Source of the DNA: Psammoneis japonica
Lineage: Eukaryota
Length of the DNA: 64,000 bases
Direction: 5' to 3'
Assembly (NCBI GenBank): GCA_008632985.1
Contig: QPGO01000036.1
Coordinates: forward strand, 334,182 to 398,181
The notes beneath the pieces are model-generated. The model ran no database searches. It was not told the DNA's origin and saw only the letters and a list, made by a program, of their open reading frames with translations. The position numbers and the translations under genes were made by a program. This document shows, piece by piece, positions 1 to 64,000 of this stretch. Every line of letters begins with the position of its first letter. Position 1 is the stretch's first letter.

Positions 1-354
1 GACACCCATTGCAAACCAGTCGATGAGCTTTTGCAGGAATGCAGTGGTCGCAAGGAATCTGAAGCCAAGCCAGCAGCCGCTGCGAAAGCGGAGACGGATC
101 TTCCGATGGGGTGTCGTGATGACGAGATAGATCAATTTTATGATGCAAGGGATTGCTGGTCGCAGCACAGCGGAAAAGGATGGTCCGATGGGGTGTCTTG
201 TTGACGAGGAGGAGATGGATCCATGTTGTGATGCAGGGGGTCAGTCGCAGCAAGGTGGAAGAACGGCAGAGAAATTGGGTGTCGGTGGACAGCGTAAATT
301 GTTCAAACAAGGTGCGGTGAAATCGCAACTGCGGCAGTGCCGTTTTAACAGCAC

Positions 355-2345
355 CGACATGCGCCACACCCACAGCCACTGATGCTGCAACTTGCAGCTT
401 GACACAAAGAGCTTGTGGTGATTTCCAGATTCCTTTCCACGAAGCTGACGATCAAACATTTCTAGATTGGTGAGACCGCCAAAGCTTGCTGTTTCATTGA
501 TCGCTGTCTGGCCACAACAGCAACAGGCATCCACAACGAAGAGACTAAAGGCAACCCGTCCCATGGCAACTGCGTCGCGGCGATGCAATTCATAAAACTC
601 ACTGTGGAACTCTCTTTGAAGTCGATCAAATCACGGGCAATGGGACAAATTGAGTGTGAGACAGTGAATTGCGCAACAATGTGGTTGACAAACACGTTCT
701 CCGTTTCCTGTTCTTGCCGCAGTGCTTTCAATGCAACAGTTTCGTTGATTGCACCCACGACGACTTGCCACACATCTCTGAACCAACCCATTTCTCATGC
801 AGCTGACAGAATCTTCAAAGTCTGCATTTGTTCCTGAGTTGCGACCGGTGGCTTGCAACTCCAATTCATGCAACGCATTGCAATTAGGAAATGACAACGT
901 TGCCATTGTGAAGGGCAGACACATTTTTTGTCTTGACGATGGTCCGCAGTGAAGACATCTTGGTGCATTGCAACCTCACCTGCGGTGGTGCGTGCAGTGT
1001 CAAGTCGTCCTCGAGCAGACGTGGATGAAATTCTCTGTCGAAGCCACACGGCGTTCGTCCAAGAATGCCAGACGAGGTGCAGCAGCTTCACCCTTCAGTT
1101 CCTTGTTCGTTGTTGCATCTGTGGATGCGTCGCGCAATGACGAGTCAACGGGAGACTCTTCTGGTGCAGTGGCGGTGTCGTTGCGAACGTCGTGTTCTTG
1201 ATGTTTGGAAATGTGAAGTGCAAAGGACAGCGCAGCAAACAAAATAGAAACAAACGCCAGCACTCCAAAAACAGGTCGCATTTCTCCGGCGTTTAAAAGA
1301 ATGATGGACGAGATTTACGACGGGTTCCAGTCCCAGGTGGGACTTTTTGTGACATTGGGCCCGCAGAATTCTACGTGCGAGCTCCGCAGTAAAATTGTCA
1401 AGCAATGGATGTGTGAATGATCGCCAACAGAAAAAGAGGCAATTTTGCGAATGCATCTCCTCCTCCACACTTGAAGTGCATTCTTTGCAGCATGCCCGGG
1501 TGTGTTCTTTAGACATTGAAGAATGCACCCAGTGCATTTTTATTGACACAAGTGCAGACAACAGAAAGCCTTTGGCTTCGCAAAACAGGCAGTGTGGAAC
1601 AATTTTTTACAATGGAACACGTAGAAATGCACGTGCGAAACATGCGACGGATGACAAAAAATGATTGTGTCACAGTTCAGCAGTGTGAGGTCCCACCCAG
1701 AGCTGGAACATGTCTTGCGCATGGGTGATGGAGTCAAGGAAAGTGCTTGCCTTGCAGTGTCAAAGGCATCACTTTGTGATCGCCGATGCCGAACATGAAA
1801 TCTGCCACATCTGCCCGGGGGGAGCTTGTCTGTGCACTCACTGTTGGGAGAAACAACTGAGAGACACTGTGGCGTTGAAAAACGAGGAATCTCCAACGAT
1901 GCAGGACACCTTTCTGCAACACTAGAAAGTGGTCCGGAACTTCTGCTCTAGTCTCTTCTTCTGTTTTCGGCCTTTCTGTCATGGACAGGAGGCGGACAGC
2001 GAAGTCACACCTTGCTTTCTCGATCTTGGATGGAACATTGTGAATGACGCATGAGGCAGAAAGAGACTCTCTTGAAAATGCGAGGTGTCGCGGCACAAGT
2101 GCTCCCCAGTCTTGTTTGCGCTGAGTTGCACTTCGTGGCAATGCATCGGCATGTTTGAAAGCAAGTCCATCCTGTGAATTCCTCAAAGCTCTTCCTCCCA
2201 TTTTCCCAAACATTTTGCAAACTCGGATGACGATGCCGGCACTGCAGTCTCTCTCCAACGAGGATGATTCAGTCGCAAGACGATTTTCCCTCCATCATTG
2301 GTGAAAACCACCGTTGGCAGCGGCATCGAATTTCTGAAACGCTCA
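355..2345 (-). pseudogene. Degenerate copy of the membrane protein-kinase locus (homologous to ~31045-32680), including intron and upstream region; interrupted by a MITE
   Basis: Colinear with 31045-32680 (e.g. AINETASFGGLTNLEMFDRQLRGKES; SFPNCNALHELELQATGRN). It has frameshifts, the splice donor GTAAG is changed to GCAAG, and TA->TG/CA changes run throughout. Confidence 0.93.
1319..1714. mobile_element. MITE-like insertion (~396 bp) with ~25-bp imperfect TIRs and a 4-bp TSD (TTAC / TTGC)
   Basis: Left end GACGGGTTCCAGTCCCAGGTGGGAC vs reverse complement of right end GACATGTTCCAGCTCTGGGTGGGAC. The empty site GAGATTTACGCATGGG is present in the sister copy at ~6511, and a matching empty site is in the intact gene at ~31996. 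Confidence 0.85.
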
Positions 2346-3550
2346 CGAGTCAAGCTCCATTCGCCCGGACCGTCATGGGCGCTGCCCTTGAAGGAGGCGT
2401 TGTTGAGTGCCACTGCACTCACAATTCAGCATCCAGTGATCACATGCGTCCTGCCAGCACATTCGGTTTGGTGGCAGCATCGCCCACCCGAGTCCAGTCA
2501 TCTGAAACAATGCGAAAACAGTCATGGCCCGAACGACACCTCAGAGAGGAGAAGCCAAACCTTCTGAACAATGTTTCCGACTTGCTCATGTCGGCATTAA
2601 ATGGCTTCCACCTCTTCGTCAGAGGTCTCTGACCCCACTCTGGTTCCCGATTCTGTGTCGTCAGAATCCTTTTCATCAACGACGCAATTCAGATGACCTG
2701 TGCCATCGTCCTTCCATTTCCGGATCTTCATCATAGTTCGCATTGCCGTGACCAGAGCTCTCCACCAACCTGCCAGCATGCCAGCAAGAGAATGAGTGGA
2801 CTTTTCTTCTTCCGAGTCCATTCCGACTTCTTCATCGAACTAAAAAAAGAAAGAAAGCAGACGAGTCAGAAAAGCTTGACACGAGAAAACCTCAAACGAA
2901 CCTGGCCTCCACATCTTGTTTTCAAAACATTTGCTGCAAAGTGACGCATGAGACGTGACGCACTTCTTCAAAGGTTGCAGCAATGCGATGCACGAGATGT
3001 GATGCAAGGATGCAAGACACAAGGGCGCAAACAAGAATGGAAGACCAAAGAGCAACACTCGCCGCTTGCAACCAAGTCTGGGGCCCTGCAAGGAAGCAAC
3101 AACGACCGCTTTTGTAAGAATTGTGTTGGTTCTCGCAGCGCACTGCTCGTGTGCACTTCCAACTCTACAGTGTAGAGAGCGTGCAGCTGTCCTCAGCACA
3201 GCACCATTTAGGAACACGTTCTGGTTTCCATTGTCATGATGTCGAGTGAATCTCACAATTGCGCTGGCATGATCGTGTGGGTCTGAGTTTCCACCAATGA
3301 CACACACCCCATCAATGTCCTTGAGCTTTTCTCGAAATGCCTTTTCCGGTTTGAAATCGGAATTTCACCAAGCCTCGAACTTGGGACCGGCATTCATGGA
3401 CGTAATCACCTTTTGACAGAACATGCAGAGAATGACAGGCATTTGCCCACGCAGTGAAAAGACTGAAACAAACTGCGTCGACTGGAGGCTCACATTTGAA
3501 ATGTGGCCACAAAAGTGCTCACCTTGAAATCTAAGCAGCCACCACACACA
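1715..3550. repeat. Segmental duplicate, copy 1 (pairs with ~6515-8340)
   Basis: Near-identical colinear sequence for ~1.8 kb; differences are mostly transitions at TA/TG/CA/CG dinucleotides. Confidence 0.95.
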
Positions 3551-3554
3551 ATGA

Positions 3555-4090
3555 GTGTCAGACACACAGCAGTGGATTCCTTGTCATCTGCATCAACTTC
3601 ATTGACTCTGGTTCCCCATTCTGTGCCGTCAGAATCCTCTTCATTGGTGACGTCATCCAGACAAACCGCCCATCCTTCCATTTCCGGATCTTCTTCATCA
3701 CAGCTCGCATTGCCGTGACCAGAGCTCTCCACCAACCTGGAGCATGCAAATGTGAGAATGAGCGAACTTTCTTCTTCCAAATGCACTCCGACTTGTTCAC
3801 TGACTAAAAACAAAGCAAGAACACAGCAGACGATTCAGAAAAGCTTGACACGAGAAAATCTGAAACGACCCCACAGTGCCCTCCACGTCTCGTTCAAAAC
3901 CTTTGCTGTGAAGCGACGCATGAGATGTGGCACACTTCTCCAAATGTTGCAGCAACGCGACGCACGAGATGTGAGACAAGGATGCAAGACAGAAGGGGCA
4001 AACAAGAAGGGAAGACCAAAGAGTGACACTCACCGCTTGCAACCAAGCCTGCAAGGAAGCAACAACGAACGCTTTTGTAAGAATTGTGAT
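3555..4090. repeat. Diverged third copy of the ~2620-3125 segment
   Basis: Shared blocks such as CCTTCCATTTCCGGATCTTC, GACCAGAGCTCTCCACCAACC, CAGAAAAGCTTGACACGAGAAAA and GCAAGGAAGCAACAACG. Confidence 0.85.
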
Positions 4091-4255
4091 GATCATCGCA
4101 GCAGCATCGCCAACGAAACAAACGCATGAGTGACTTGAGTGAGTTGTTGAGTTGTTGGTTGTTGATGCTGTTTCGGCACGCTTTTGTGGCTGTGCCAGAC
4201 AGCCCGTGGCATTCCACCACTGCAATCTTGCCGAAATCGAACGAAAGTTCAAAAA

Positions 4256-4552
4256 GTGGTCGACCTTTTTTTGAATTTTTTCACAAGAGGTCGACCCTTT
4301 TTCAAAAAAAAAGAATCGAACCTCCAAAATTACAAAGAACCTCCAAAATCACAAGAAGAGGTTGACCCTTTTTAGATTGCCGGCAGTGGTCGACCTTTTT
4401 TTGAATTTTTTCATAAGAGGTCGACCCTTTTTCAAAAAAAAGAATCGAACCTCCAAAATTACAAAGAACCTCCAAAATCACAAGAAGAGGTTGACCCTTT
4501 TTAGATTTTTTCACAAAATGCTGCATGTCGTCGACCCTTTTTGAAAAAAAAT
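4256..4552. repeat. Tandem duplication of a ~131-bp unit built from GTCGACC(C)TTTT and GAACCTCCAAAAT motifs
   Basis: 4256-4378 is near-identical to 4387-4508, with a further partial motif at ~4530. Confidence 0.9.
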
Positions 4553-5802
4553 TTAACGCGTGCACGTGCTGCACAGGCCACTCTAGCTAGAGCAGCTGGT
4601 GGAGAGAGTGCCGGCACACGCAGTGACGCACCATGCTGTAGAGTGGGACTGGATGGATCCAGGATGATTGATTCTTCATTCGATCGCGGGTCGCGGTCGC
4701 TTGTGTTCTTGATTTACGAGCACATTCATCATTCATCGACGGTGCTTTTGAGCATTCCGTCGAGACTCAAGCTGTCGAGGCATCAAGAAGAAGCGACAAA
4801 ACAAAGGAAAGAATCGTGGTGTTCAGGACATTTAAGAACTCTGCAAGGTGGTGGAACCTGCGGCACATCGGAGCCATTTTGAGAGAGATGATGAAATCGA
4901 AAATGCAGGAGCAGTTTTGCAGATTCCACGAGCAGAGGCAGCCGCTTGTCGAATTGCCAAGCAAGAGCTGGACCCACATTTTTGATTCACATTCCAGCAG
5001 CTCTTTTGTTTTCTCATGATTTGCAAGAATGGCTGAACAAAACGAGTGGCAGCGCAACGAAGAAACAACATGCACGTCCTTTTCCGAACGCGCAGCCTTG
5101 AGCCTTTGTGGAGTGCGTCGGTCCCAAGAGCACGCCATTTCGCAACAAACTGAATCCATGCACTGCTTGGATGGATGGAATGGCAAAATTTCGAAATGAG
5201 TTTTGGTGTTTAGAGCCATGGGGGAGAGTGCCTGAAGACCAGTGTCTGTCCGTGCATGTGTTGGAAGCCGTGGTTCTTCCCATGCATGTTGACATGACAC
5301 ACTCCAAGGGCAAAACGGTAGACTGGAGCCATTTGGGATTAGCCAGAAGCAAAAGTTGCAATCTCATGCGGCTGATTTGCTTTTTCGACATGCCAAACTT
5401 GCACATGCCGGCACAAGAATCATTGAGCGGGGCAACTCGGAGAGAGAAGGACTGCACAGCACTTGGATCAACCTCCCAAAACAATGCATTGTCACTCTAG
5501 ACGACGAGACTCGACACGACGAAAACATGACTCGTCCCGGTCTTCCTGACATCCTGGTGCATGTAGACTTGGAACCCCAGAACTTGATTTTTCTCGTAAA
5601 GTTGGTGCAGCATCAAGTCACGCCGTTTCTATGCTGGATTGGGAGGAAGCTGCTTGTGCAGATCCACAATTTGAATTGTTGATGCTGTGTCGCAGGGTTT
5701 GCGCCAGTGATGATCAAGCCACTCATCTTTTGGGATTTTTGCTCTAGGAACCAAATTGTCCCGCTGGAATGTTGGAGAACAAGGCATTCATTGCTGGCAT
5801 CC

Positions 5803-7152
5803 CTGAACCGTGTCCGGCTAAAGCTCAAAGCGATTCACAGCTTGTGCACGTCACTGATGCAGGGTGTGGATCTGTTGGGGTGGGGTGGCAGGAGAAACCC
5901 ATGGCAAACCAAGCCAGACTTGCTGGTCAAGATTCAAAGTGAATGGAAACGATTGTACAATGTGGGTTGGGGGTTTTACAGAGCTGCCAGAGATTGAAGT
6001 GTTGCCAGTCATTGTGCGATGTTGCCATTTCTGGATGCTTCATCGTCAAATCCATGAGCGCTTCCAGCAAAACTGAGGCAATGTCCTCGGCAGAAGTGCG
6101 TTTGTGTGGATCCAAGACAAACCAAGTACGATCGGATCGTCTGAATTGATGTGCATTTTGTGGAGTGCAGGTGGTTGTCCATTCGCCACTTCGAAACGGA
6201 CCACATCAATTTGCCTCTTCTTGTTCATTTTCTCACGGGGTGAATGGGATGTCAATGCAGGTGTTGCGTCAGCACCACATGCTTGATGAACATGCGCCAT
6301 GCCCACACAAACTGACGCTGCAACTTGCAGCTTGACAAAAAGAGCTTGATGTGATTCCTTTCCACGAAGCTGACGATCAAACATTTCTAGATTGGTGAGA
6401 CCACCAAAGCTTGCTGTTTCATTGATCACTGACTTGGAAACAAACACCAGTGCTCCAAAAACAGGTTGCATTTCTCCGGCGTTCAAAAGAAAAATGACCC
6501 ACTGATGGACGAGATTTACGCATGGGTGATGGAGTCAAGGACAGTGCTCGCCTTGTAGTGTCCAAGGCATCACTTTGTGATCGCCGATGCCGAACGTGAA
6601 ATCTGCCACATCTGCCCGGGGGGAGCTTGTCCGTGTGCTCAGTGCCCGAGAGAAACGACTGAGAGACACCATGGCGTTGAAAAACGCGGAATCTCCAACG
6701 ATGCAGGATGCCTTTCTGCAACACTGGAAAGCAGTCCGGAACTTCTGCTCTAGTCTCTTCTTCTGTTTTCGGCCTTTCTGTCATGGACAGGAGGCGGACA
6801 GCGAAGTCACACCTTGCTTTCTCGATCTTGGATGGAACATTGTGAATGACGCATGAGGCAGAAAGAGACTCTCTTGAAAATGCGAGGTGTCGCGGCACAA
6901 GTGCTCCCCAGTCTTGTTTGCGCTGAGTTGCACTTCATGGCGATGCATCGGCATGTTTGAAAGCAAGTCCATCCTGTGAATTCCTCAAAGCTCTTCCTCC
7001 CATTTTCCCAAACATTTTGCAAACTCGGACAACAATGCCGGTGCTGCAGTCTCTCTCCAACGAGGATGATTCAGTCGCAAGACGATTTTCCCTCCATCAT
7101 TGGTGAAAACCACCGTTGGCAGCGGCATCAAATTTCTGAAATGCTCACTAGT
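5803..7152 (-). pseudogene. Second degenerate, internally deleted copy of the kinase locus (homologous to ~30290-32670)
   Basis: Starts CTGAACCGTGTCCGGCTAAAGCTC as at 30290 and encodes remnants such as VRFEVANGQPPALHKMHINSDDPIV (parent ...KMYINSDDPIV). Several internal deletions join distant parts of the parent. Confidence 0.92.
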
Positions 7153-8340
7153 CAAGCTCCATTCGCCCGGACCGTCATGGGCGCTGCCCTTGAAGGAGGC
7201 ATTGTTGAATGCCGTTGCACTCACAATTCAGCATCCAGTGATCACGTGCGTCCTGCCAGCACAGCAGTGTCGCCCACCCGAGTCTGGTCATCTGAAACGA
7301 TGCAAAAACAGTCATGGCCCAAACGACACCTCAGAGAGGAGAAGCCAATCCTTCCAAACAACATTTCTGACTTGCTCATGTCGGCATCAAACAGCTTCCA
7401 CCTCTTCGTCAGAGGTCTCCAACCCTGCTCTGGTTCCCGATTCTGTGTCGTCAGAATCCTGTTCATCGACGACGCAATTCAGATGACCCGTGCCATCGTC
7501 CTTCCATTTCCGGATCTTCATCACAGTTCGCATTGCCGTGACCAGAGCTCTCCACCAACCCACTGGTGTGCCAGCAAGAGAATGAGCGAACTTTTCTTCT
7601 TCCGAATCCATTCCGACTTCTTCATCGAACTAAAGAAAGAAAGAAAGCAGACAAGTCAGAAAAGCTTGACACGAGAAAACCTCAAACGAACCTGGCCTCC
7701 ACGTCTCGTTTTCAAAACATTTGCTGCAAAGTGATGCACGAGACGTGATGCACTTCTTCAAAGGTTGCAGCAACGTGACGCACGAGATGTGATGCAAGGA
7801 TGCAAGACACAAGGGCGCAAACAAGAATGGAAGACCAAAGAGTGACACTCACCACTTGCAACCAAGTCTGGGGCCCTGCTGCAAGGAAGCAACAACGACC
7901 GCTTTTGCAAGAATTGTGTTGGTTCTCGCAGCGTGCTGCTCGTGTGCACTTCCAACTCTGCAGCGCAGAGAGTGCACAGCTGTCCTCAGTGCAGCACCAT
8001 TTGGGAACACGTTCTGGTTTCCATTGTCATGATGTCGAGTGAATCTCACAATTGCACTGGCATGATCGTGCAGGTCTGAGTTTCCACCAATGACACACAT
8101 CCCATCAATGTCCTTGAGCTTTTCTTGAAATGCCTTTTCCGGTTTGAAATTGGAATTTAACCAAGCCTCGAACTTGGGACCGGCATTCATGGACGCAATC
8201 ACCTTTCAACAGAACATGCAGAGAATGATGGGCATTTGCCTGCGCAGTGAAAAGACTGAAACAAACTGCGTTGACTGGAGGCGCACATTTGAAATGTGGC
8301 CACAAAAGTGCTCACCTTGAAATCTAAGCAGCCACCACAC
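6515..8340. repeat. Segmental duplicate, copy 2 (pairs with 1715-3550)
   Basis: Direct colinear match; lacks the MITE. Confidence 0.95.
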
Positions 8341-8522
8341 ACAACGCGATCCATCTTGAGGAACCCGCCAGTGCTCTTGATGTCATCCAGCACACTGTCC
8401 AACACTTGCTGAGCTTCGACTGGTGATTCCTTGTTGTTGTCTGCAGACCATTTACAATGCCATTCGCGTGCAACTGTGTCAAAATCGACACCAGGTGCAA
8501 TTGTGGCGAATTGTCTTTGCAT
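8075..8522 (-). pseudogene. Pseudogene of a small conserved algal protein of unknown function (FDTVAREW.CKWS.DN ... RVVCGGCLDFKV ... F.PEK.F.EKLK); partial second copy at ~3270-3550
   Basis: Motifs recognisable in ORFs 8199-8522 and 7849-8202, separated by a probable decayed intron; TA-depleted. Family recognised from memory, not searched. Confidence 0.7.
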
Positions 8523-9548
8523 GTGAGATTTGTGAAACTGAAAGACTCGAAACAGATGGGGAGAAACAAGTCAAACATGAAGAGTTTCGAGACGCCACCG
8601 TTGTTGACATCGATGATGAATGACGACTTGGAAGTTGAACGTAGCGAGCGAGACAAGCTTCTCAAGACGAGGGCGACTGCTCTGAAATGTGCTTCCATCT
8701 TTCCCAGAAAGAACGAGCCTTGGGTTGTGCCAAGCCACCCATGAGAGAGAGAGACCTTTCCTTCCATTTCAATTGTCTGAGAATGTCCCCATGATTGTTT
8801 GCTCAACGCAAGACAGATGGAATTACATGCTGTGCTTCTGGTCAAAGCAAGGGGTGCGTGACGAAACAAATCTCAACTCACTCTGCGCCTCGAGTCATGC
8901 CGCGACTGCGGACATTTCGGGCAAGGGATGAAGACAACGTTTGAACGCAGAAAGAAGCATCTTGAGCCGATGACGAGAGCGCCGCAGCCAAGCAAGGCAA
9001 GAAAATAATGACGCGAGTATCCGGAGCTACGAGCTGTGCCGCACTTGACGCAACCAAGGGACAAGCTAGGGCTGTCGTCATTTAGCACGAGGCAACCCCA
9101 AACCTGAAGCCTAAAAAGCCGCATCCATCGCATCCGGACTTGAAAAAAAGATACAAGATACCATGATCCGAAAGAATAGAAAGCTTCGTGTACTAAGAAA
9201 AATAATAGTTGCATCAAAGACGATACTGTAGTGAGCATAATCATTCTTCTCCTTTCTTCATAGTGACGTATTGGCTTGTCTACTATCTTGAAGACTCTAT
9301 GAAAAATTTGGATTCAAGTTGGATATACAAAAAAATTCGTATACATATAAATAATAATAACGTTCAACGCATCTCCCGCCAAAAACGGGCGGAAATGATG
9401 ATAACATTTTGGTTTCTTCGTCTTCAGTCAGAATCCAGCCATGAGCTCCCTTCAACCTGCGTTGTGTCGCCGTCTTTCTTGAAATTGTTGAATAACAAGG
9501 CGACTATTGAGTCGTCATCGGCTCAATAGAGAGCGATAAGAGTAGACA

Positions 9549-12157: not shown

Positions 12158-12506
12158 TATGACATTTTAGAATGACTGTGGACATTTCAAGACGTAAACT
12201 CTTAGAATTTCTACAGGCTGAGAGTCAGACATCAGAAAGTTTCATGCAAGTGTCGAACCTCCACCGTGAACCTTAGTACAAATCTACGAGAGAGACATTC
12301 GAAGAGTGTCTATTTTCTTACGTGGTCCAGAAGGCATTGAGATCACTTCTCACGCAGATCACTTTTAGATTAGTTCAGCTCATAATTTCAACTAAGCACG
12401 AGTTAGTAAGACAACTCATTGCTGTTTTACTGGCTTTTAGTACCTTGTGCTGATTGTCAGCACTGCATTCTACAGACAGGACTTGTTTCCCAGGCAGAAT
12501 CCCACA
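12158..12506 (+). repeat. 5' LTR
   Basis: TATGACATTTTAGAATGACTGTGG...AGAATCCCACA; aligns with 26327-26688. Confidence 0.93.
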
Positions 12507-12521
12507 GGCGCTTCCTCTGCG
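12507..12521 (+). promoter_or_regulatory. Putative primer-binding site GGCGCTTCCTCTGCG
   Basis: Directly abuts the 5' LTR; its complement CGCAGAGGAAGCGCC resembles the D-arm of eukaryotic initiator tRNA-Met. Confidence 0.5.
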
Positions 12522-50249: not shown

Positions 50250-53200
50250 TCGTACGCCATGAATGACGGAAGAGAAAGGGCAGAGGAGACGGAAATTGAC
50301 AATGGCCCCACTGTCCAAAATTGAGGATTTGGTCGTGGAGAATTTTGCATTGCAAGATGCCCTGCAGCCTTGCCAGTGCCTTGTGCTTTGATGTCCTTTC
50401 CAGGTCACGAATGGACAACATTTACAGAGAACGCTCACACAGGATGATGAAGAGCATGACCTTGTGTTCCTTTCGTCCGTTGGTTTCTGTCGTGCCGCTG
50501 TGGACTCGCAACAGTTGGCAGCCCAATTGTGTCACCAAGCCCCGCATCACTCATGGAATCTTGCTGTCAAAGTGGGCTTTGCTTGTCGACGGTGTTGGTC
50601 AGCTTCTGTTGATTGCCGAGATGCATGCACTGCATTGAATCTAAATCCGATGCACAATGACGAAATGCACCCTGCTGAGGGACTGGATCAGCGAGTCTTT
50701 CTCTTGCTCACATTTTGCGTTCGACAAAAAGTTCTTCTATAAAAATTCTTGCTTCTTGCACACTGTGCAGAATTGTGAGAGTCAACGTTTTCATTTGGGA
50801 CTTGTGCTCTGTGTGATGAAAGTTCTCTCCTCTGCTGTTTGCCCACGATGCATGCACAATGACTTGCTCAATCCTTTTTACCGACATTTCAGATGCATGC
50901 ATGACCATGGATTGAAACAGAGTTCCGGCAGTGTTGCACAGTTCGCATTCACGGTTCTTTCCACTGCTCACAGCGCAGCATTTTGCAGCTGCCATCAAGG
51001 ACTGCATGATGAGTCAGCAGGTGCAAAAACCTGGAGACAGATTGCGTGGGAAAGAGGAAACACCATGTTCGAATTATTTGGCGGATGATGGATCTTTAAG
51101 AGGCTTGTTTGCATGTCTCACCACGTTCATTGTGCCTCTGGAAAAAATCACGGAGGTGATGGTGATCAACTGTTGGAGAAAGGTGACTCAAAGCTGTGTC
51201 AATGCCCTGGTGCACTTTCAATCTCAGGCATTGTTTTAAAATGCGAGTCGCAATCGGCTGTCTTTTTATCCATTTCCGGTCACTTGAAGCCAGAACGCCA
51301 GTCGGAGCCGCATCTTGGGTCCACACGAAGCAATTGTCAGATGCCTTACAAGATGAGAGCACTTGAGGCGCACTGCAAGCATCCAACCTTCAAAATGGCC
51401 TTTTCACTTGCCGTCTGTCTTGCTGAATCGATGAAGCTGTGATGCAGATGCTTCAGCTTGTGCTCTCAAGAAACTTGAGTGATTTGAGTGAAAGGTGCTT
51501 GGTGGAGCTTTTGGAAAGGTACAAGCTTCCAACGATCGCATTTGTCTGTCAATCTTTGAGCAATGTTCGCTCAATCAATGTCCCACAAGTGTCGCTGATC
51601 TGACACCGGAGCAACGGAGACTTTTAGAGTGCAGGTCATCCTTGCACCAATGCTTTGCGAGCAACACAGGTGGTCGAAGCTTGGAATGCCATCATTGCTG
51701 CGACCAACCAAGCAGCGGATCCTTGAGACAGTGTTTCGGATTGCATCGCTTTGTGAGCAGTGCGGTGCTGGATGGGGCTGGAACTTGCAATGCACAGCTG
51801 TCGCCACATCTTGGTCAGCATTGAAACAGTTCATCAAAGCTGCAGCAGCTTTCTTCTTTCTGGAGACAGCTGGCCTTGTCGGGTTTGATTAATCTTGAAT
51901 GCAGATTGGGCGCTTGATCTCAACACTCTCTCAGTGAAGTGGACTGCGGAACCTTGGAGCACTCGTGCAGTTTAACAACAGAGGATTGAAGTTTTGCATC
52001 AGTGTTTTCACCTCAGCTTTGTGTTTGCTGAATGATCCTGAATGTCTTGTGATGCAGACACCTGTCAGAGGTCACGGGTGCCATTCCGACGGAACACGGG
52101 AGACCGTTGAAATGCCCACAGCGCTGCATCCTTTAACTCGTTCGACTCGACAGAGCTTGAGCAGTGACAAAAGTTCTTGTTGCATGATGAACCACTTGGA
52201 AGACTCTGATTTATTTCTTGGGGTGGGGACTTGGGAAGACCGGCGTGCGAACGCAACGAGGACGATGGTGCATCGACCCTCGTCAAACGTCAAAGCCTTG
52301 CGTCCCAATTGTGGTTGGATGCCTTGTGAACTGGCTTGTGCAACTGACCAAGATCATGTCTGAGAGCACACAAATGTGGCACTTAGATTCAGATGGCTTG
52401 AACGGCATCCATGACACGGAGCATCGTGCCTTGCTCTTTTGGGGACTAAAGCGACAACAAGAGCAACACCATCGCCAACATGAACCAGCTGTTGATGACC
52501 TGTCAACACACAGCTCCTCCTTCTTGCACATCTCCATTCATGTTGTCTGTCCCAACAGAAATCAAATCTGAAAAAAGAGTGTGAGTTGTGAAGCATAACT
52601 CAGCGAGACGGTCACAATCGCAAACGCAACAAAACAGATCTTCAAACGCTGTGGGACGTGGAGAACACAGCTGACACAATGGGCTGGCGACCCACAGGAG
52701 TGTCAAACCTGCGGGGGCACAGACATGAGATGCTCAATGAGCAACTCAAGTGGTCTGAACCACCTCACAACCTTCACGAAAAAGGCTGCCCTTCGGGGTT
52801 GTCAAGCACACTGTCTTAGTCCACGACATCTGCAGGCGTTCAGCGTGCGTTCAAAAAGAAAGCAGAGGCTGGCCTTCACATGGTTCCTGCTTGAACAACC
52901 GTTGCACTAAAAAGTGCATTGGTTGGCACTGGGTTGCTGCCGCATTGGACGTTTATGAGCATTCAGCACACACGCACGAAGCAAGTTTGCTGGCAATCGT
53001 GGTGTGTCTCCGTCAGAACCACGGGCTGCTTTGACAGGCAATCGTCATTTTGCCTCGAACCGACTTCCAAAGACACACGCAATCAAATGCACAGAGGAAA
53101 ACCGTCAAGGACCCAAGCCTTCAGGTCTGCGTGGCAATCGTGTGCGGATGGCATTCAATGACTTAACTCCAGCAGATCTAACTCGCAACGAGAACGAGAT

Positions 53201-53300
53201 GGTCGACTCACCTTCAGCAGAGTCATGATGCAAAAGGTCGAATGGCGATTTTTGTGTGCTTCGTGCAACAATGAGCAAAGTGATTCGGATTTCACGTGTC
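50250..53300 (+). pseudogene. TA-depleted decayed gene, possibly of the diatom family with repeated GxxCxxC zinc-binding modules
   Basis: Fragments VKVGFACRRC and LECHHCCDQP; many stops and frameshifts. Cys counts are inflated by Y->C, so the assignment is weak. Confidence 0.35.
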
Positions 53301-55779
53301 CCGGGTCTGCCGTTTCAAAATTTTTGAAAATGTGGCGGGAAACCAACGGTGTTTTCACTATCACATTTTGTGTACTGTTGGGCGAACCCTGTGACGTCAT
53401 TGAACGAGCTCCAAGGTCCAAGAAGATTTCCTGCTTCCGCCCGGCCGCCCGAGCATAAACACACCGTAATGACGCATGGCAGATTGTCGCAGCGCATCTT
53501 CTCCCATTTCGTTCGCAGCACTGTTCATAGTTCATACACACCATCTCACGACGAGGAGGAATCTTTAGGTTTCGAGATATGGATGGAAATGGCGGTGCCT
53601 TTTTCGCGTCATCGTCAGATTCAGGAGCCAACACCAACAACACCGGCAGCTTCTCGCAATAACATCAACTCTCAAAACGGATACAATTTCGCCGTAACGC
53701 CATTACTAAGCCATGCTCACGATCCTGTGCCTGACCAAAAGTGAGTTTGTTGTGTCGTCACGCCTCAACTCCCACGGTAGATGCACTATTTGATTCTGGA
53801 ACTCGGTCCTTCGTTGATTTCTCGCTTCTCCAGAGTCTGCACCAAGTTCTAAGCCTTTCGAACGAACTTTAAAGGTGAGAATTCTTTGATCAGAAATCAC
53901 ACACCGTACAATTTATCACATAACAACTATACCACACTCATTTTCAGCTTGTACGCCAACAGTAATAACGATTGAATTAAGAATGAATTACCAAGTACTT
54001 CATCGCACACCAAGTGAAGACCCATGAACACTCCTTGAGTTCAATATTGTTTGCTAAGGCTGCGGTTGGCTGGAAGAGAATTGATTACCCTCGGTTCGAC
54101 CAAGAAGTTCTTCTCCAGTCACATTGTTTGTTGATACAGGTCTGTGACATGGCTGAGTATGAACTTTGTTGCATAATAGATGAGTCACGGCGAGCGCCAC
54201 GAAGCATGAAACAATAAGTTCATGATCGATTCTCACCCGGTGTCAAATGGAAGGATTTGACCGCTCCAACCGATCCGCAATCACACAAGACCTCCAACCA
54301 ACCATCAGGGGAACAATAAGGTGGGGACGAAGAACTTGTGACCGAAGCAAAAGAACAATCAATCGGAACGGATGGCATCAATTGCAAATTTGAGCGAACC
54401 CAGCGCCCAGCGACAGCTTCAAGATCTGTACTTCTCCGACCTCCCCGCTGACTTGATGCTCGTTTCGCATGCTTAGCTTCTCTCAAGCTCTCCGACTCTT
54501 CTTCTCATCTCTCTCGAACTCTCAAATTCTTCTCTCTCAAGCTCTCTCTCGAACACTCCGACTCTTCTTCTTTTTCTTCCGTAAGGCACTCGAACATTCC
54601 CAATCCACTTCTACCCGCGATTCAAGATTGGTGCCGACCATCGAATAACTCATCCATCAGCGGAAAAAAGATGCACGAGCTGCTATGAACCGAGCCAACA
54701 CAAGCACGGCCATCCGTAATGAGGAATTCCCATGCTTGAACGCGTCCTTCTCCTCCCCGTTCCTCTTAACAACGCGCCAACTACTCCATTGTGCTGGCTT
54801 GTATCGTCAGAAGGGTCATTTGCTCCGGAAGTACCACGGCTAGTGCTGTCTCGTGGATGGGATTGTCGCTATCAGACGCACGGTCATACGTAATGAGGGA
54901 TTCCCGTGTTGGAATGGAACGGAAGCATTATGGAATCAAGCACTTGATCCACAAGTATCACTTTTGGTGTTCCATAAACGGCCGACAGGATTCTTGATCT
55001 ACTTTGCCCCACTCCTTTTGTCGCAAGCCTCGCAAGATTATCAAGCTAAGCAACGTCTTGCCGCTTCCCGGGGAAAGTACTACATGATCCCGCCGATGAT
55101 GATCATGGGCGATTGATTGGGTGCTCTTTCTGACGGGCTGTGGTCTTACGATTATTGTATATCTTGGTGTTGATAGCTTCCTTGACACATTGATGACGTA
55201 CTTGGATTTGTTCTTGCAGCGGGGTGTTGTACCTTTTGCTTGCGATCGTGATCTTGGGCTGCCTCGAATTCCAACAACTCTGACAATGCAGTCGCCCGCA
55301 TGGAACACTACGGATGTGGATTGGGGACACGCCTGATGGAGATGGCACAACTGTTCATCAATTAGATCAAGGCTCTGTTTTGCTCATTGCGATGAAGCAC
55401 CCAACTCGTTGACCAGCACATGCAGCGCCATTGTCGCTCTCCACCCCGACAAAGCTGCAGACACGATGGTTGGTCTGGCTTTGGCGTCGCACCCCTTTGT
55501 AATCGCGCCGTGCTGTGTCTTCGGTGGATAGTTCCCACACGGAAGAAAGATCAACTCCAACGAAATGGTCAGTGCAAAGAGCATTTAATGTTTCGACGTG
55601 TTTGATTGTCAAGTTACGGGGTGCAATCTACCTACTAAACCGAGTACCTAATAGCATCTCTACGAGTAGCCACTATCTAGGAACCAAGCTAGAGAGGGGG
55701 TTTTCTGATTCTTCTTGCCTCTTCTCCAAACCTCGACAAAAGGCAAACTGTTTATATTCGACAAAACTAAAACACCATA

Positions 55780-58150
55780 TTCTCAGAGGGATGAATGAAC
55801 CAACAAACCCAACAAACACATAAACACCTTCGACCTTCACCTCTGGTCTTCGCCTTCAAACTTGGTTTGGACAAACTTGGCTTGTGTCTCATCGAACTTC
55901 TTGACCTTCGAGTTTGTCAGGACATCCTGAAGAATGCAGATTGCAGCTCCAACCACACCCACACCCGAAACATTGGGTCGACTCGCAATTCCCGCAAAGT
56001 TGAGAGCTTTGAGCGATGCAACCAAAATCTTTTCCGATCGCCCCTGTGCAAGAGCCATTCGCTCCAGGGCTTTTTCGTTTCCCAAGGATCAAACTCAAAC
56101 CTTGAGGTTCTTCAACATGTGCAACCTTTTGTGGCAACATGACTGCCGCCTTGATGTTGGCACTCCTTTGGATTGAGACCCGTCGCTTCCAAGAAAATGT
56201 CAAAATTTTTGGCGGCTTCACTCAAGTGACCCTTCTGTGCTCATGTGAAATTTTCAACAGAGGGTTGAGCAAGCATGAAGGACAAAGGCAAATGTGCTGG
56301 GAAATCAAAAGACATTGTTTTCCATCAAGGTTTGCCCCAATTGATTGTCCTTGAAAGTGTGCGTCAAGCATCTTGCCAGTTTTTCTGTCACCAATCAATC
56401 TGCGCCACACACCAAGATGGAATGTGGGTGGCTGATGGCAACTCTTCCATCTCTTGTCAAAGGCTTGCCATCCAATCCAATGGAGGGGGGCAGGTGGCTC
56501 AACAAGCTGTCAGTTTTACACTGTTCTCTCTGCCAAGCTGCAGCTCAACTTGGGTTGTGTGAGTTCCATCTTTGGCTCTGCTGATGTGCCCGTTTGTGAC
56601 ACATTGTGGGAACTTGTCACTGAGTGACACAAAAACAAAATGTGACCTCATGTTTTGTTTTGATTTTTCCCTGATGCACCACCATCCAGCAGGAGAAAGT
56701 CGCCCATTCCCAACAGCACTGGCTGTCAAGAAAAGCTCTGATTTGGCCCCAGCAATGTGCGCTTCAAAGTTTTTGGCATCTCTGTTGGCAAGGTCATTGG
56801 TGCGGGCATCTGTTGGGGGGGCAAGCAGCTTCTGTGGAAAAGTGCTGGTGAGGTTGGCAACACTCTTTGGAGCAGAAGCATTGGTGGCCATCAGAAGTGG
56901 GCCACAGGGTCCTGCCATTGAAAGCACTGATGACTGGCACATGTCACACAAGGCTGTGCTGCTGCCAACCTGAGAAAAGTTGCTGTTTTGTGCCTGTGGT
57001 GGTTGCCACCTTGTGCCCACTGTTTTTCTTTCTTTCATCTCTAACGTGGGTTGAAGATTTTGCTGAGCAAAGATGAGACAGAAGTGCAAAGTGCTCAACT
57101 CTGTGGAGGGCCCTTTGCTGCCAATGAAGTGTGTGCAGCTGCACCCAGCCATGAGGTGAGTGGTGGGCTTGACATTGTCTCAACTTGTTGATGCTCATGC
57201 AAACCAGGCTGACCAAGCTGCCTGCTGGAGACTGCTCTGTGACCACCAACCAGAGCTCCGTGGCACATTGGGGGCCATGGGTGGAGAGTTGTCCATGAAA
57301 GATTGTGCAACTTCAATTGCCATCAATGCCAGAACAAGAAGCTGTGGCACCTGAGCTGCTTGGGAGTTGTTCACCAGTGATTGCCAGTGGGAGAGCTCTC
57401 TGGTGGGTGCTGGGAACCAAGGATGGAGAGTCATCCACACGAAGGACTGAGCAAAAGCTTGGAAGTCACACGACAACAAAAAAATGAAGTTCTTTCTGGA
57501 GTTAACTCCAGTTGATGTGGGTTGGAGTTTTTGCTGCATGAAGACAAAAGACAGAGAAAAGCAAAGGACTCAACTCCATTGAAGGTCTTAAATTGCTGAG
57601 GATGGGTTTGAAGCTGCTTCAACAACCGTCAGTGCTCAAGCAAAGTGGGCCAGTCATGCCACTTGGGGGGCATTGTGTGACTGCCGACTCAAACTCTGCA
57701 GTGCTTTGGGCACCAAGGGTGAAGAGTTGTCCATGAAAGACCAAGTGACTTGTTCAACAGCTGCAGATGCTGCTTGGGGCTTGTTTGTCTAAGGACCTTT
57801 TGCAGCTTGCAGTTTGAATTTAAAAAAAGCAGCACTTTTGAAACTTTCTCCTTGGAGAATCTTGAAGAGTTTTGTCTCACTGTCAATCTGATGCTCTTCC
57901 CTTTCTTTGGTCGGAAGAATGATCTGGAAGGTTCTCTTGCCTCTTCACTTGAGTCAGTCATTCCCGTTGGCCCGAATCATTCTCAGCTGAACCCACTTGC
58001 AGGCTGCATGGCACAGTTGGCAAACATGACACAGGTGGCTTGTGCAAACTCCAATTGCATTCTGATGAATCCATTGAGACGGTCCCAGCTGAAATCGGCA
58101 AATTAGCCTCTCTCTGTCGAATCCCACAGGAAACAAGCTTTCGGGTCGAA
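55780..58150 (-). other. TA-depleted degenerate block (probable TE or pseudogene) with short internal repeats GGACAACTCTCCACCCATGG
   Basis: Near absence of TA; related repeats at ~57280, 57420 and 57720; protein-like minus-strand fragments that I cannot assign. Confidence 0.4.
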
Positions 58151-58531
58151 TTCTTTTTTGAGGTGTTGCAGAGCTTCCTCATCTTGACTTTTTGACTCTA
58201 AGTGACAATTGCTTGATTGGTCCTCTAACTGACTTCTCTCTGGTAACCGAGAACGTTTGCTGCAACTTGACGGGCGGACCACAATCGTCTACCTGGTAGT
58301 TTCAAGAGTGTCCTTAACCCTCTCTGCCACACGACTACCTTCTTGCTTCTTCGTTGAACTCAATGCATACACTACGCATGTTGTGTTAAAAGACGGCATA
58401 TTGTGTTGAAACACAACATGGCTTTTTCTATAACCCTTGGTGGTGTACTAAAAAGACTTTCACGAAACAATCCCAATGCCCCTCACATTCGAAACTTTCA
58501 TTTTCAAGTCGCAACTTTCAGTCTAATCAGA

Positions 58532-59341: not shown

Positions 59342-59874
59342 GGTTTGGCGGCCTTACCGTATTACAGTTTACAGTATGCGGAAGAAGTAGCCCAGCCGTG
59401 ACAACATCGTGATGATGCCATGATCCATGATGCAAGTCCAATGACAGAAGAAAATCCTGCGGCTCGAGCTATTTTGAGCTTTTTGGGAAGACAAAAAGCT
59501 CGAGAGCGCACTTCAACTTCGCTTGACGTGCATTTTCTGGATTCAGCGTTCGCATTGTCATCCATCATTCTGGATTCCTCTCTCATCACTCAAATCGTTC
59601 ACGTCAACGCAGCATGCAACCACACAGGCTTTATCGATCGAACAGTGGCTGTCGTTCAGGACGACTTTGCTTGGCAGTGACACACCCCTGCAGTCAGAAT
59701 GAATTGGAAAGCATGAGAAAGTGATGCTCATCAGCTCGAGGAAGCTCTGAAAGCTTTCGCGATCTGTGAGCAGAAGAAAGAGGAAAACGATGCCAAGAAA
59801 TGGGCGAAGAACCGGTGCAGAGATTTAGCGAAATGTGCCAATGTTGATTCCATTGCAAAACTGTCCGTGGCTTG

Positions 59875-62186
59875 CATCAGAGCGCGCAATGCAGTGATCA
59901 TCACACATCTTTTCATTGTGATTTTTGTTCCTTTCACAGACAAATTTTTTGTGGTTTCAAACCTCATCAGTTTTGCAGCTGGCAATGACATGCAAACTGT
60001 GACAGATTGACATTTTTATGCTGTGGGATCAGACCCCCCCTCCCCATGAGAAAAAATGTTTCACCATGAAACAGGGGCACGTTTTCCCTGTGAGAGTGCC
60101 CACCCTCTGTCCCTGCAAAACCTGCAAATTAAAATTGTTTGCATTGTGCCATGAACGTTCTATTTTGTTGTTTACATTTAAATTAAATGACGCCAACGGA
60201 GACAACACCCTAGAGTCTGCAGCAGTTGCAGCTCACTTTCTTTGAGTGCCGCTGCTTGCAGCCACCTTGTTCATTGCCAAAAAAGTGCAGAATGCGTTGT
60301 GAGAGTGCAATGTGGATGAACTGACACCACCAACAGGAACAGCAACATGGACTTGCCGGTGCATCCGGCACCGCCGATTCTGGAGCAGGTGAGTTTGCAG
60401 CAGCTGCTGCAGTTCTCTTTCTTGAAGAGCCACTGCCAGCACTGGCAGCCACCTTGTTCATTGTCGAACGGTGTGGAAAATGTTGTGAGAGTGTGACAAA
60501 GATGAACCAACCACAACCAATGGAGACGTCAATGTGTGGACTTGCCTGTGCATCCAGCGCCACTGATTCCAGACCAGGTGAAGTGACACTGCTCTGATCC
60601 ACCTTGTTCATTGCAAAGAAGTGCAAAATGCTTTGTGAGAGTGTGTGGGACAACAACAGCAACCAATTGAAACCGCAACATGGACTCACTGGTGCATCCG
60701 CCGTGGCCAATTTGGTTGCTTCTGCCACCGGTTCCCGACCCCGCGAAGCCGATTCAGGACCATGTGAAGCAACATTGCTCTGATCCACCTTGTTCATTGC
60801 AAAGAAATGCAAAACACTTTGTGAGAGTGTGCGGGACAACAACAGCAACCAATTGAAACCTCAACGTAGACTTGCAGGTGCATCCGCTGCCGCCGCCAAT
60901 TCGGGAGCTTCTGCTGCCGGTTCCCGACCCATCGACATGGAATTGGCAGCTGCTGCGGTTGTTGCAGTCGACCCCCCCTGCTGCTCTTGACCACAAACAG
61001 CGGAGAGACTTGGGAAGCCTTTAAAAATGAGCCCAACAACTCAGGCAACCTCCAATGGGTTGCCTCCCCACTCTCCACCTCTGCAGTCTTTCTGGATCTG
61101 GACATGGAAATTGGAGAAGACGGATGCAACACAAGTGAACACATCAAAAACAAATGAAGCTCTTTTTGTGCATGCCTTTTTTGAAGAGTGTCACATGTGG
61201 CAAAGAACTTTTCACATGTGTGATTCTGAGAGCTGCAGGAACAAGCACCGCCTGCAGTCTTTCTGGGTCTGGACACAGAAATTGGAGAAGACGGATGTGT
61301 TGTCAGCGAATGTGTCAAAAACCAACGAACCTCTTTTTGCACATGCCTTGTTTGGACAGTGCAATTCATGGCAACTGATGATGTTTCTGGATGCAAAACT
61401 CTGACATGCACGATTACAACAACACTGCAGAAAAGTGAGTTTATGACATGCGTGCACACAACACACAACAACACGCCAGCAGCTCAGCATTCTGGATGTG
61501 GCAGATTGTGACAGCACACTCGCGATCACAAAATTCAAGCTGCGCCCGAATAAAACCCCATCTTGACCAACCAGAAGGATGGCAGGTGTCACCACACGTT
61601 GAGCCACTGTCATTGGCCAATGGGGTGAAGTCTTTCACCGCCATGGCCAGTCATTGATTTGCAGATTTGCGACCACATGTAGGATCCACGTGAATCATGA
61701 CAGCACGCGCTCTCATTTTTCAAACTTTGGGGAGAGGGTGTGCTGTTGTGAAATGTGTAGAAAATTGCGCATGTAAAACACATGCTAAAAATGCCGTAGA
61801 CCAACGGGCTGTGCAAAAGTGAAGAAAAATGAAGGTGGGTCACGTGCGTGCGTGAAGTGCTGCAGACTGCACACGTGCAAAGACACACACACGTGAGTGA
61901 GGAGGACAAAGTTAAAACCAAGTTCAAATTGATTACGATCAAAAGGAAACCAAACCATGCACAACAAAAAATAGATTTTGATCCCAATTGATTGAACATT
62001 GCATGCATTTGATTGAAGCTTGTGCAAGAAAAGTTAGTGAGACATCAGACAAAATGCAAAAAACAGCTTCATTTTGTCAAGCACTTTTGCTGGCATTTTT
62101 CAAGTTCTGCTTGTTGACAATTTTGACAATGCACACTCAAAATTTTACAAAGGAAAGTGGAAACCACTGTGTTGCCGCCTCTGATG
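59875..62186 (+). mobile_element. Non-autonomous TIR element family 'CATCAGAG', copy C (complete)
   Basis: TG|CATCAGAGCGCGCAATGCAGTG ... CACTGTGTTGCCGCCTCTGATG|TG; ~22-bp imperfect TIR; identical 2-bp flanks. Confidence 0.92.
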
Positions 62187-63300
62187 TGCCGCAAAGAAGG
62201 AAAAGACAACGTCAATGAGAACCTGCCTGATGGACATCGGCTGTCCAAAGACACCTTTGACGGTCTGCCAAAGTTCTTGCCTGGACCAGATCAAGCAGAA
62301 TGCCTCAGGATTGCCAAGAAAGCCGTTCACCGAGTTGTGCGAGAAGAAGAAAAGGGCACAAAGATTGACACAGTTACAGTTTGTAGACATGGTCCAAAAT
62401 GAGGCTTCATGGGAAAACAAAAGTTCAACGTTGACGGGGAAATGTTTGTGGGTTGCTCTGGATTCATTCAACACGTTCAAGCCACAGCCTTGAATGAAGA
62501 AATCAGAAGTGAGAAAATCACTTTGCAGACAAGTGACCAAGACTGCATGAGAGCCAAGGACTGTTTTGACCATTTCAGCAAAATGAGTGAGACAGAGCGG
62601 GGGGCTGGTTGTGACTGGGGACAGACACGTGACATCAGGATGGCAGTTCCAGGCAATGTTCTTGTGTGCAGGGTCAAAGGAAGTGCCGCTGGTGGAGCAG
62701 AGTGTGCAAAGGTCAAGGATGACATGTTGGAAGAGGGACTTGAGGAATTGCTCACAAGAGTCAAAACTTCAGAGCTGCATGACGAAGACAATGCCAACGA
62801 CAGCGAGGACGATGGGGGCGAATGCGCAGTCCACAGCAAAACAAGCTGTTGCCAAAAAGCCGAAAGTTTTGACAAGGACATTTTGAAAGAAACTTGAGAA
62901 GCTCAAAATCCTCAAAATTGACAACCTCCAGCAGCTGAGAGTGAAAATGAAAGATGGAAAGCTCAGCAAGGAATTGAAAGACGTCTTGCTGTTGGAAGAG
63001 GACAGCAGAATCAAGGAGACCCTCAATTCAAACCAATCCAGCCCAACACTGGCCATGTTGTTTTTGTTGCCAGGCTTGCAGAATCCATGAAAGGCCAACA
63101 ATGGTGTGTTCCTGTGTGCCAGTCTGCAGGTCATGGCCACAAGATTGAGGACCCCAAAAGCAGGAAAGTGCTTGGGCATCACAAAGGAGTTGAGCACCAC
63201 ACAAAGTCATTTTGGAAGCAGAATGATGGAACTTGGGTCAAGAAGGGCGGCGGGGACACTCGAGGACATTCTGAAATCACAGCAGGTTGCCTGATGTCCT
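62187..63300 (+). pseudogene. Degenerate ORF of unknown identity, probably continuous with ~59420-59874 before copy C inserted
   Basis: Lys/Glu-rich protein-like fragments on both sides of the insertion; TA-depleted. Confidence 0.4.
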
Positions 63301-64000
63301 GAGCCGGTTGCAGTGGCCAGCTTCTACACAGGAACATGTGGGCGCAGCACAGCAGATGTGAATGAAGGGAAAGACAATGCCACATGGTGAACATGGTCAT
63401 GTTGCAGCAGTTTGCTGCTCTGCATGGCCAGCTCAGGGCCAGAGTGCAAGTCATTGGGGGCTTCTGTTCAGCCAAGCTCTCCTTGTGGCGACCACAAAGC
63501 ATTCGGCAGCTTGCATTGAATGATCACTCAAGTTGTGGAAATGCCTTTACCCCTCACCCACAATCAAACAAAGATTCAAGACTCACCACTGTCAGGGTCA
63601 GGTGCAAGCCCCTCTGCTGATGCAGGATGAAAACCACAGTCATTGTCTTCTGTGCAGTGCTGCTCGATGAGGACATGGTGGTTAAAGTTTGAGCCATTCT
63701 ACACTGCCGCTCGTCTTCAACAGTGAAGCTTCATCCACTCTTGGTCAGGGCCATCTGAACAACATGTTCACCCATGTGGTGCAAGGCCCACACACACACT
63801 CCTGGGCTGTGATTCTGATGTTTGACTCCAATGAAAAACAAGCCAATGTTGCATGGGCTGCAAAGACAGTGTTGACAACATCTTTCACCTCTTTTTCTTT
63901 TTGAGAAGTCAACCAGTTGTTGCCACACACATTGCTCTCATTCAGCAGTCAGAGTGAGGTCAAATCCAAGCTTCTTTGGGGTTTTAGCAATGACGATTGG

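Follow-up and report, generated by a model that had tools for sequence, protein, structure and literature searches.

The window analysed here is a stretch of 64,000 nucleotides from contig QPGO01000036.1 (GenBank assembly GCA_008632985.1, positions 334,182 to 398,181 of the forward strand), in which two kinds of DNA alternate. Gene islands, with two paralogous membrane-anchored kinases, MoaC, a DUF2009 gene and a sulfotransferase-like open reading frame (ORF) of 528 amino acids (aa), contain the dinucleotide TpA (TA) at normal frequency, whereas the blocks lying among them, which hold relics of transposable elements (TEs), a satellite and decayed gene copies, have almost none. The original prediction for this DNA, drawn from its letters alone, held that TA in such blocks had been converted to TG or CA, and named the process a candidate "reverse RIP" after the repeat-induced point mutation (RIP) of fungi. 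We find that A:T pairs at TpA were changed to G:C at the level of DNA and on either strand, that the change is confined to bounded blocks of TE relics, satellite and pseudogenes, and that the genes, introns and intergenic DNA adjoining these blocks keep normal TA.

TA-depleted blocks and their contents

The window as a whole has a GC content of 48% and a TA observed/expected ratio (obs/exp) of 0.29. In 1-kb bins the ratio lies between 0.00 and 0.23 in the blocks named by the original prediction, and at about 0.4-0.86 between them. Segmentation with a two-state hidden Markov model (HMM) on P(A|T), whose states were depleted (D) and normal (N), yielded eight D blocks totalling 40,504 bp, or 63% of the window, with TA obs/exp of 0.04-0.13, and seven N blocks totalling 23,395 bp, with ratios of 0.50-0.81 (Table 1). 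The edges fell within ~0.3 kb of those first proposed, and the genes do not share the depletion of the blocks. P(A|T) is 226/9895 (0.023) in D versus 1033/6247 (0.165) in N (Fisher p=2.6e-237), and the 226 TA left in D, which are evenly spread, compare with expectations of 2612 from base composition and 1636 at the N rate. The observation of TA depletion is confirmed.

Table 1. Positions of the depleted blocks, their TA-normal reference sequences and the comparable metagenome contigs
Feature	Position	Strand	Remarks
Depleted block 1	9..8971		two decayed kinase copies and local repeats; TA obs/exp 0.11, CG 0.78
TA-normal repeat copy	12160..12506		depleted partner 26329-26688, 82% identical
Depleted block 2	12483..18788		copia-type relic (+), repeat-family copy 1; TA obs/exp 0.05, CG 0.31
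TA-normal insert between depleted blocks 2 and 3	18789..19977		TA obs/exp 0.81; high-copy; non-coding
Depleted block 3	19988..28664		cysteine-synthase fragment, repeat-family copy 2, copia relic; TA obs/exp 0.08, CG 0.24
Intact kinase gene, TA-normal	30239..32682	-	one intron of ~85 bp; reference copy for polarising block 1
Depleted block 4	33108..34551		unclassified 1.4-kb insert that separates the two kinase genes; TA obs/exp 0.12
Second kinase paralogue, TA-normal	34935..36811	-	73% identical to the first over 887 aligned columns; N-N control pair
Depleted block 5	42138..47015		186-bp satellite, ~24 units; TA obs/exp 0.06, CG 0.17
Depleted block 6	50089..53355		unclassified; TA obs/exp 0.13, CG 0.70
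Depleted block 7	55829..58197		unclassified; TA obs/exp 0.04, CG 0.26
Depleted block 8	59399..63998		repeat-family copy 3 (59873-62186) and unclassified DNA; TA obs/exp 0.10, CG 0.46
L021 depleted blocks	457-1413, 3431-4217		flank a TA-normal region with a 435-aa ORF (L021:1806-3110)
L022 depleted blocks	894-1850, 4262-4881		counterpart contig of L021

From N to D the GC fraction rises from 0.467 to 0.490, Tyr falls from 2.36% to 0.13% of the six-frame translation, and TAA and TAG vanish. Because these two stop codons have been lost, the D blocks contain long, overlapping and spurious stop-to-stop ORFs on both strands, 76 of them with at least 125 aa, and Pfam searches (E<=0.1) with 56 of the 76 returned almost no credible match. 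Gene callers would over-predict in such DNA.

Recognizable remains within the blocks include decayed DNA-level copies of the kinase gene at ~356-2351 and 5754-8344 in block 1, a gag_pre-integrs domain (Pfam) at 15312-15866 (+) in block 2, and, in block 3, a pseudogene fragment of cysteine synthase at 20684-21184 (+), confirmed by Pfam (PALP) and with E=1e-25 to PDB 4aec, together with two Pfam matches to RVT_2 (copia) at 24793-25173 and 25228-25812 (+). An unclassified repeat family has three copies in the window, at 16.5-18.9, 22.2-24.3 and 59.9-62.2 kb, the first two spanning 16533-18862 in block 2 and 22240-24260 in block 3. The motifs in which conserved Tyr residues were said to have been lost are all present, namely HCHADNG (15738-15758, +), RCVDD (23217-23231, +) and ECLW (34309-34320, +), and the MYIN of the intact kinase gene (30650-30661, -) reads MHIN in the pseudogene (6145-6156, -). 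The names given to the elements fared unevenly: copia is upheld by the gag_pre-integrs and RVT_2 domains, and the labels "Penelope-like" reverse transcriptase and "transposase" find no Pfam support at E<=0.1.

Two local arrays deserve separate mention. In the satellite array (42522-46934) the right-hand units are younger and more uniform, and there are strong skews of T over A and of G over C. In block 1 a 129-bp unit stands as a tandem duplicate (4255-4507) with copies 98% identical, which still carry a few TA; this duplication is very recent.

Direction, context and timing of the change

The polarity of the change was read from six pairs of paralogous sequences with one copy in D and the other in N, two of the pairs not being independent of each other, and substitution rates were taken from four independent pairs. 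Of 133 TA in the N copies, 106 are TG or CA in the depleted partner (53 of each), 12 are still TA and 15 are something else; the other dinucleotides are kept at 55-83%. The TA-normal repeat copy of Table 1, for instance, has 18 TA, and its depleted partner shows 10 TG and 6 CA in their place. The proposed direction, from TA to TG or CA, therefore holds. In the control pair, formed by the two kinase paralogues of the gene islands, TA is kept at 30 of 67 sites and the other dinucleotides at 0.43-0.60, with no special loss of TA. When A>G changes are sorted by their 5' neighbour, the counts are 90/213 after T, 25/422 after A, 38/335 after C and 21/353 after G; the proposed enrichment at TpA is thus strong (90/213 versus 84/1110 elsewhere; odds ratio 8.9, p=3e-33).

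Per 1000 dinucleotides, D differs from N by -38.6 TA, -27.2 CG and +66.4 TG+CA, so that the excess of TG and CA is accounted for by the loss of TA together with that of CpG. When these two decays are applied to the N sequence, all 16 dinucleotide frequencies of D are reproduced (r=0.994), the root-mean-square deviation falling from 17.3 to 2.7 per mille, and a small extra AT>GC shift remains. In the four pairs C>T has occurred at 47 of 257 CpG sites versus 0.04-0.055 in other contexts, so that CpG decay counts as a second process at work in these blocks. Judged by frequency ratios, an adenine in TpA underwent A>G about three times as fast as a cytosine in CpG of the same DNA underwent C>T. CG obs/exp varies across D blocks from 0.17 to 0.78; TA is already depleted (0.11-0.13) where CpG is near normal (0.70-0.78), and the blocks lowest in CpG are also lowest in TA. 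CpG decay coexists with TA loss in the D blocks to a varying degree, and TA loss does not depend on it.

The nucleotides around TA have a pronounced effect on its fate. Survival of NTAN tetranucleotides in D relative to N is 0.61 for TTAA, 0.004 for ATAC/GTAT and 0 for ATAT. A model in which the strands are independent, with four parameters for ten classes, fits these data (G=7.99, df 6, p=0.24) and gives per-strand survivals by 3' neighbour of 0.77 for A, 0.44 for G, 0.20 for C and 0.086 for T. The two strands of TA are thus hit independently, with the rate order TAT>TAC>TAG>>TAA, and the outcome is balanced, 53 TG to 53 CA. From this factorisation we infer that a short single-strand motif, T-A-Y, is read and not a duplex palindrome. 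At the resolution of 150-bp bins the borders between D and N are sharp and without gradient: N within 150 bp of D has a TA obs/exp of 0.64 (0.61 farther away) and D within 150 bp of N one of 0.08 (0.09 inside), in a comparison that is partly circular as the edges were set by the TA-based HMM itself.

Several observations place the change on resident DNA and spread it over time. The kinase pseudogene keeps its intron, and of ten TA in that stretch nine are TG or CA, including the splice donor, where GTAAG has become GCAAG; because the intron is retained and itself mutated, the pseudogene stems from a duplication of DNA, and it was as DNA that it mutated. Two segments of block 1, 1715-3551 and 6516-8344, form a duplicate in which both copies are depleted (93.9% identical). 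Their differences are transitions in 103 of 112 cases, and 24 of 26 double mismatches are CA in one copy and TG in the other, which means that one ancestral dinucleotide was resolved independently in the two. With the intact kinase gene as outgroup, the 22 TA sites of the N copy comprise 11 with a shared derived state, 3 with CA against TG, 2 with TA against TG and 6 others. Shared derived states alongside CA/TG and TA/TG sites imply that the process was active both before and after the local duplication. A single alignment column of the 186-bp satellite has TA in 9 units, CA in 7 and TG in 4. Mutation has taken place in situ, on DNA and on both strands, over a long period spanning local duplications.

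The altered bases are also present in an independent assembly of public reads. We used Logan contigs of the public run X1, made with a different assembler, in which single-copy words have a depth of ~56-70. Contigs at this depth reproduce the TG and CA bases of D: three of 781, 1386 and 936 bp have no differences from the window, and a fourth, of 1915 bp, has 4. As X1 is possibly the sample from which the assembly was made, the agreement excludes assembly or polishing error and not an effect specific to the sample. An unrepaired inosine:thymine (I:T) mark, or random base calling, is disfavoured because the contigs would then break at every site. Among 40 of the 288 letters that differ between contigs and window there is no clear TA pattern. 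A second run from the same sample, X2, covers five of 30 bins of window positions 12001-32000, outside or at the edge of D and mainly in the gene at 29.0-30.7 kb; it differs from the window at several sites and may be transcript-like or of low coverage, and no inference was drawn from it.

Precedent, mechanism and alternative explanations

The original prediction knew of no description of such a system, and in this it has been overtaken: hypermutation of TpA to TpG/CpA is reported in a 2026 preprint on Bigelowiella natans by Mettrop et al. (bioRxiv 10.64898/2026.01.13.699255), to the available part of which our statements about this alga refer. In mutation-accumulation lines 231 of 302 nuclear mutations fell in integrated DNA of a nucleocytoplasmic large DNA virus (NCLDV) and a virophage, and 230 of these 231 were A>G or T>C, all 230 on TpA. 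The rate, measured live, was ~6e-7 per site per generation, and a mutation rate elevated ~1000-fold in such lines is a mark of this kind of process. The same source describes 324 coding sequences nearly devoid of TpA and enriched for DDE and reverse transcriptase (RT) domains, as well as 124 clusters of 1-kb windows poor in TpA and rich in CpA+TpG. Its main targets, the NCLDV insert, reported as single-copy, and the virophage, are still TA-rich (Rho 0.45; 3.3% and 9.2% TpA), and its authors propose an ADAT2-like deaminase as a candidate enzyme. The chemistry suggested by the original prediction agrees with this account. A full-text search of the literature returned, besides this preprint, only classical RIP papers and no second description.

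The window shares with B. natans, as far as the preprint's available text describes it, the A:T>G:C change at TpA in both orientations, its restriction to local blocks amid normal DNA (here within the window), TE-type coding sequences nearly without TpA, and clustered windows poor in TpA and rich in CpA+TpG. It differs in being saturated over the greater part of its length and in including a satellite and pseudogenes of host genes. We infer that the window represents a saturated case of the kind of TpA hypermutation first reported in B. natans. It would be an end state of such a process, with near-total erasure of TA from dead repeats beside untouched genes. To the available account it would add several rules, namely the order of 3' neighbours with its T-A-Y preference, the independence of strands, sharp borders, satellite and pseudogene targets, independence from copy number, and a CpG decay that coexists with TA loss but is not required for it.

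Known mutational systems resemble the process in part. RIP consists of C>T changes at CpA, which create TpA, yield AT-rich DNA with newly gained stop codons and affect both copies of a duplicate. It is likewise a local, heritable, context-bound transition hypermutation of repeated or mobile DNA beside normal genes; here, however, TpA is destroyed, GC rises, TAA and TAG vanish and an intact copy is spared. The standard RIP indices (thresholds as quoted for Rhizoctonia in PMC7884421, which covers standard RIP indices only) are accordingly inverted in D, with TpA/ApT of 0.10 and (CpA+TpG)/(ApC+GpT) of 1.75; such indices, and finders of AT-rich regions, miss a signature of TpA loss. Deamination of 5-methylcytosine, which is at work in these blocks too, likewise produces TG and CA, but it cannot remove TA, and the loss of CG is less than half the gain of TG+CA. 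The dinucleotide balance and the inverted indices together support the view, already taken in the original prediction, that the process is distinct from CpG decay and runs counter to RIP. APOBEC3 (on retroelement cDNA), ADAR (on dsRNA), TadA, ADAT2-3 and TadA-derived adenine base editors offer a parallel in their short, neighbour-defined single-strand motifs and in hypermutation directed against mobile elements. Their action is on cDNA, RNA or tRNA and is strand-asymmetric or non-heritable, whereas here both strands of resident chromosomal DNA have been changed. A TadA-8e variant is stated in a review, in the portion available, to edit A within YAC (PMC13109818).

The overall explanation that we favor, and regard as likely, is TpA hypermutation by a guided adenine deaminase of the B. 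natans kind. Such a polynucleotide adenine deaminase would convert A within a short single-strand T-A-Y motif to inosine, which is read as G; chromatin state or small RNA, not the sensing of duplications, would guide it to DNA that is silenced and methylated. The outcome would be permanent inactivation, through the loss of Tyr codons, of the YxDD motif and of GTAAG donors, and presumably of TATA and AATAAA signals as well. No deaminase of the cytidine deaminase (CDA) fold (HxE...PCxxC) was found among the ORFs of the window or their Pfam matches.

Certain points weigh against this explanation. The correspondence with the B. natans process is one of dinucleotide signature, and the border test is, as noted, partly circular. 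Targeting by chromatin or small RNA is suggested by two indirect indications, the CpG decay that co-occurs with TA loss and the failure of a homology trigger. Mutated DNA was still copied, which is odd for a fully effective defence. To our knowledge T, the most favorable 3' neighbour, does not occupy position 35 in any natural substrate tRNA of ADAT. Finally, as A>G and T>C at TpA are indistinguishable by sequence, a chemistry acting on thymine is equally allowed.

This last point leads to the alternative of a thymine-side lesion, in which the T of R-T-A is modified, for example to 5-hydroxymethyluracil (5hmU), and by mispairing or mis-repair undergoes T>C, giving CA and TG. All of the sequence evidence fits it equally, with the context then reading ATA>GTA>CTA>>TTA, and the DNA of dinoflagellates carries 5hmU preferentially at TpA and TpC. 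However, nothing indicates such a base or enzyme here, and the sole precedent, in its available text, proposes adenine deamination, which is itself a proposal. We consider a thymine lesion unlikely.

A true "reverse RIP", in which duplicated DNA is recognized by homology and all copies are mutated, would account for the sharp borders and for the fact that every depleted block consists of repeat, satellite or duplicated-gene DNA. It is at odds with what was spared. The intact kinase gene is 77-82% identical over 0.5-1 kb to the mutated copies, its paralogue in the neighboring island 73% identical to it, and both keep normal TA. The insert between blocks 2 and 3 has a summed word depth of 1964-2789 in X1, corresponding to ~30-40 copies, and yet a TA obs/exp of 0.81. 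Conversely, D at 25.3-28.7 kb has a depth of 70-90, making it single-copy at >=90% likeness, although it may be an old repeat relic, and it is depleted nevertheless; the NCLDV target in B. natans is, on the preprint's available account, single-copy too. Because the kinase gene and the high-copy insert were spared and single-copy D was depleted, a homology trigger of the RIP type is not supported, and neither is the repeat-induced part of the original prediction; targeting by silencing state would fit better. Some of this contrary evidence could stem from selection acting on the intact gene or from how old the relics are, but on balance a homology trigger appears improbable. The depleted repeat family (16.7-18.7 and 21.3-24.7 kb) has summed depths of 1000-3300 at >=90% likeness, and its high copy number suggests continued copying of DNA that had already been mutated, whether by segmental duplication or through ongoing mobility.

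If retrotransposition intermediates were edited as RNA or cDNA by ADAR- or APOBEC-like enzymes, copies would arrive already mutated. The copia-type retroelements among the targets are compatible with this, and ADARs favor a 5' U; yet a satellite, an intron-retaining gene duplicate and the cysteine-synthase fragment are equally depleted, TG and CA outcomes are equal, and the CA-versus-TG mismatches between local duplicates place the change after duplication. This explanation is already largely refuted, and we give it very little credence. Polymerase eta, drawn to heterochromatin for error-prone repair (WA>WG), had been named as a candidate, and TA is indeed the strongest hotspot of this enzyme. 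Its pattern would raise A>G at ApA, where the rate (25/422, 0.059) is no higher than at GpA (21/353, 0.059), and the strong effect of the 3' neighbour and the near-total loss of TA are likewise unlike it, leaving polymerase eta with next to no claim. As to an artefact or a non-mutational origin, whether through faulty assembly or polishing, a modified base taken for G, or selection that removed TA from transposons, we find it scarcely credible. The X1 contigs match D closely over 0.8-1.9 kb (0-4 differences), and an I:T mark would give TG/CA bubbles everywhere. Of the 14 N-copy TA sites that are now TG/CA in both block 1 duplicates, 11 show the same derived state in the two. Dead pseudogenes and satellite lie beyond any selection to avoid TA, and the intact paralogue has TA at the same sites.

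Wider occurrence and the gene islands

Relatives of the sulfotransferase-like ORF were sought in metagenomes with an alignment as query (A2), which gave 37 loci comprising 322 kb; a search with the single protein as query found no relative. TA-depleted blocks of >=500 bp are absent from 34 of the 37 loci. One further locus, L036, is depleted only through its GC content of 69% and was rejected as a case. The remaining two, L021 and L022, are 99% identical contigs from microbial-mat assemblies, each with two blocks of 0.6-1 kb that carry the same signature as the window: TA obs/exp 0.11-0.12, TG and CA 1.7-1.85, and CG 0.31-0.58. On L021 the two blocks resemble neither one another nor any part of the window. 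The two contigs hint at an occurrence of the signature in at least one further uncultured eukaryote.

It is conceivable, as a tentative extension of the deaminase explanation, that a guided DNA adenine deaminase serves this lineage, and perhaps algae of the stramenopile-alveolate-rhizarian (SAR) assemblage more broadly, as the chief means of permanent TE inactivation; directed by silencing marks or small RNA and not by homology, it would be a functional counterpart of RIP with the opposite chemistry. Should this be true, a chlorarachniophyte, the present, probably diatom-like genome and an uncultured eukaryote of a microbial mat would together point to an old, widespread and hitherto unnoticed eukaryotic defence. 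For targeted A:T>G:C hypermutation of chromosomal DNA the 2026 preprint is the only earlier report, and no enzyme is known. If the organism studied here is other than B. natans, the process is not limited to one alga. A natural DNA adenine editor would also interest those working on base editing.

The gene islands themselves are mixed in structure, with single-exon and one-intron genes standing beside the MoaC and DUF2009 genes, which have several introns of ~50-100 bp. Scans of the window against Rfam and for tRNAs gave no match. An exact look-up of three complete ORFs of the window in a protein collection gave no match. For the sulfotransferase-like ORF the best relatives are 49-51% identical, and the protein clusters nearest to the best of these belong most often to Bacillariophyta, a weak lead towards a diatom-like alga, probably other than the annotated B. 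natans strain. The TA-normal insert between blocks 2 and 3 contains three internal repeats of ~168 bp and, near its right end (19910-19969), a 23-nt inverted repeat; it is probably a young non-autonomous mobile element. The two kinase genes are tandem paralogues of type-II-membrane-like architecture with a C-terminal kinase domain, and their N-terminal halves have no Pfam match. Both share the motif WQTSSFPNCNMLHELEL and an HYDLNPRNI catalytic loop, and both have a single GT-AG intron of ~85 bp directly after an LKTLR motif.

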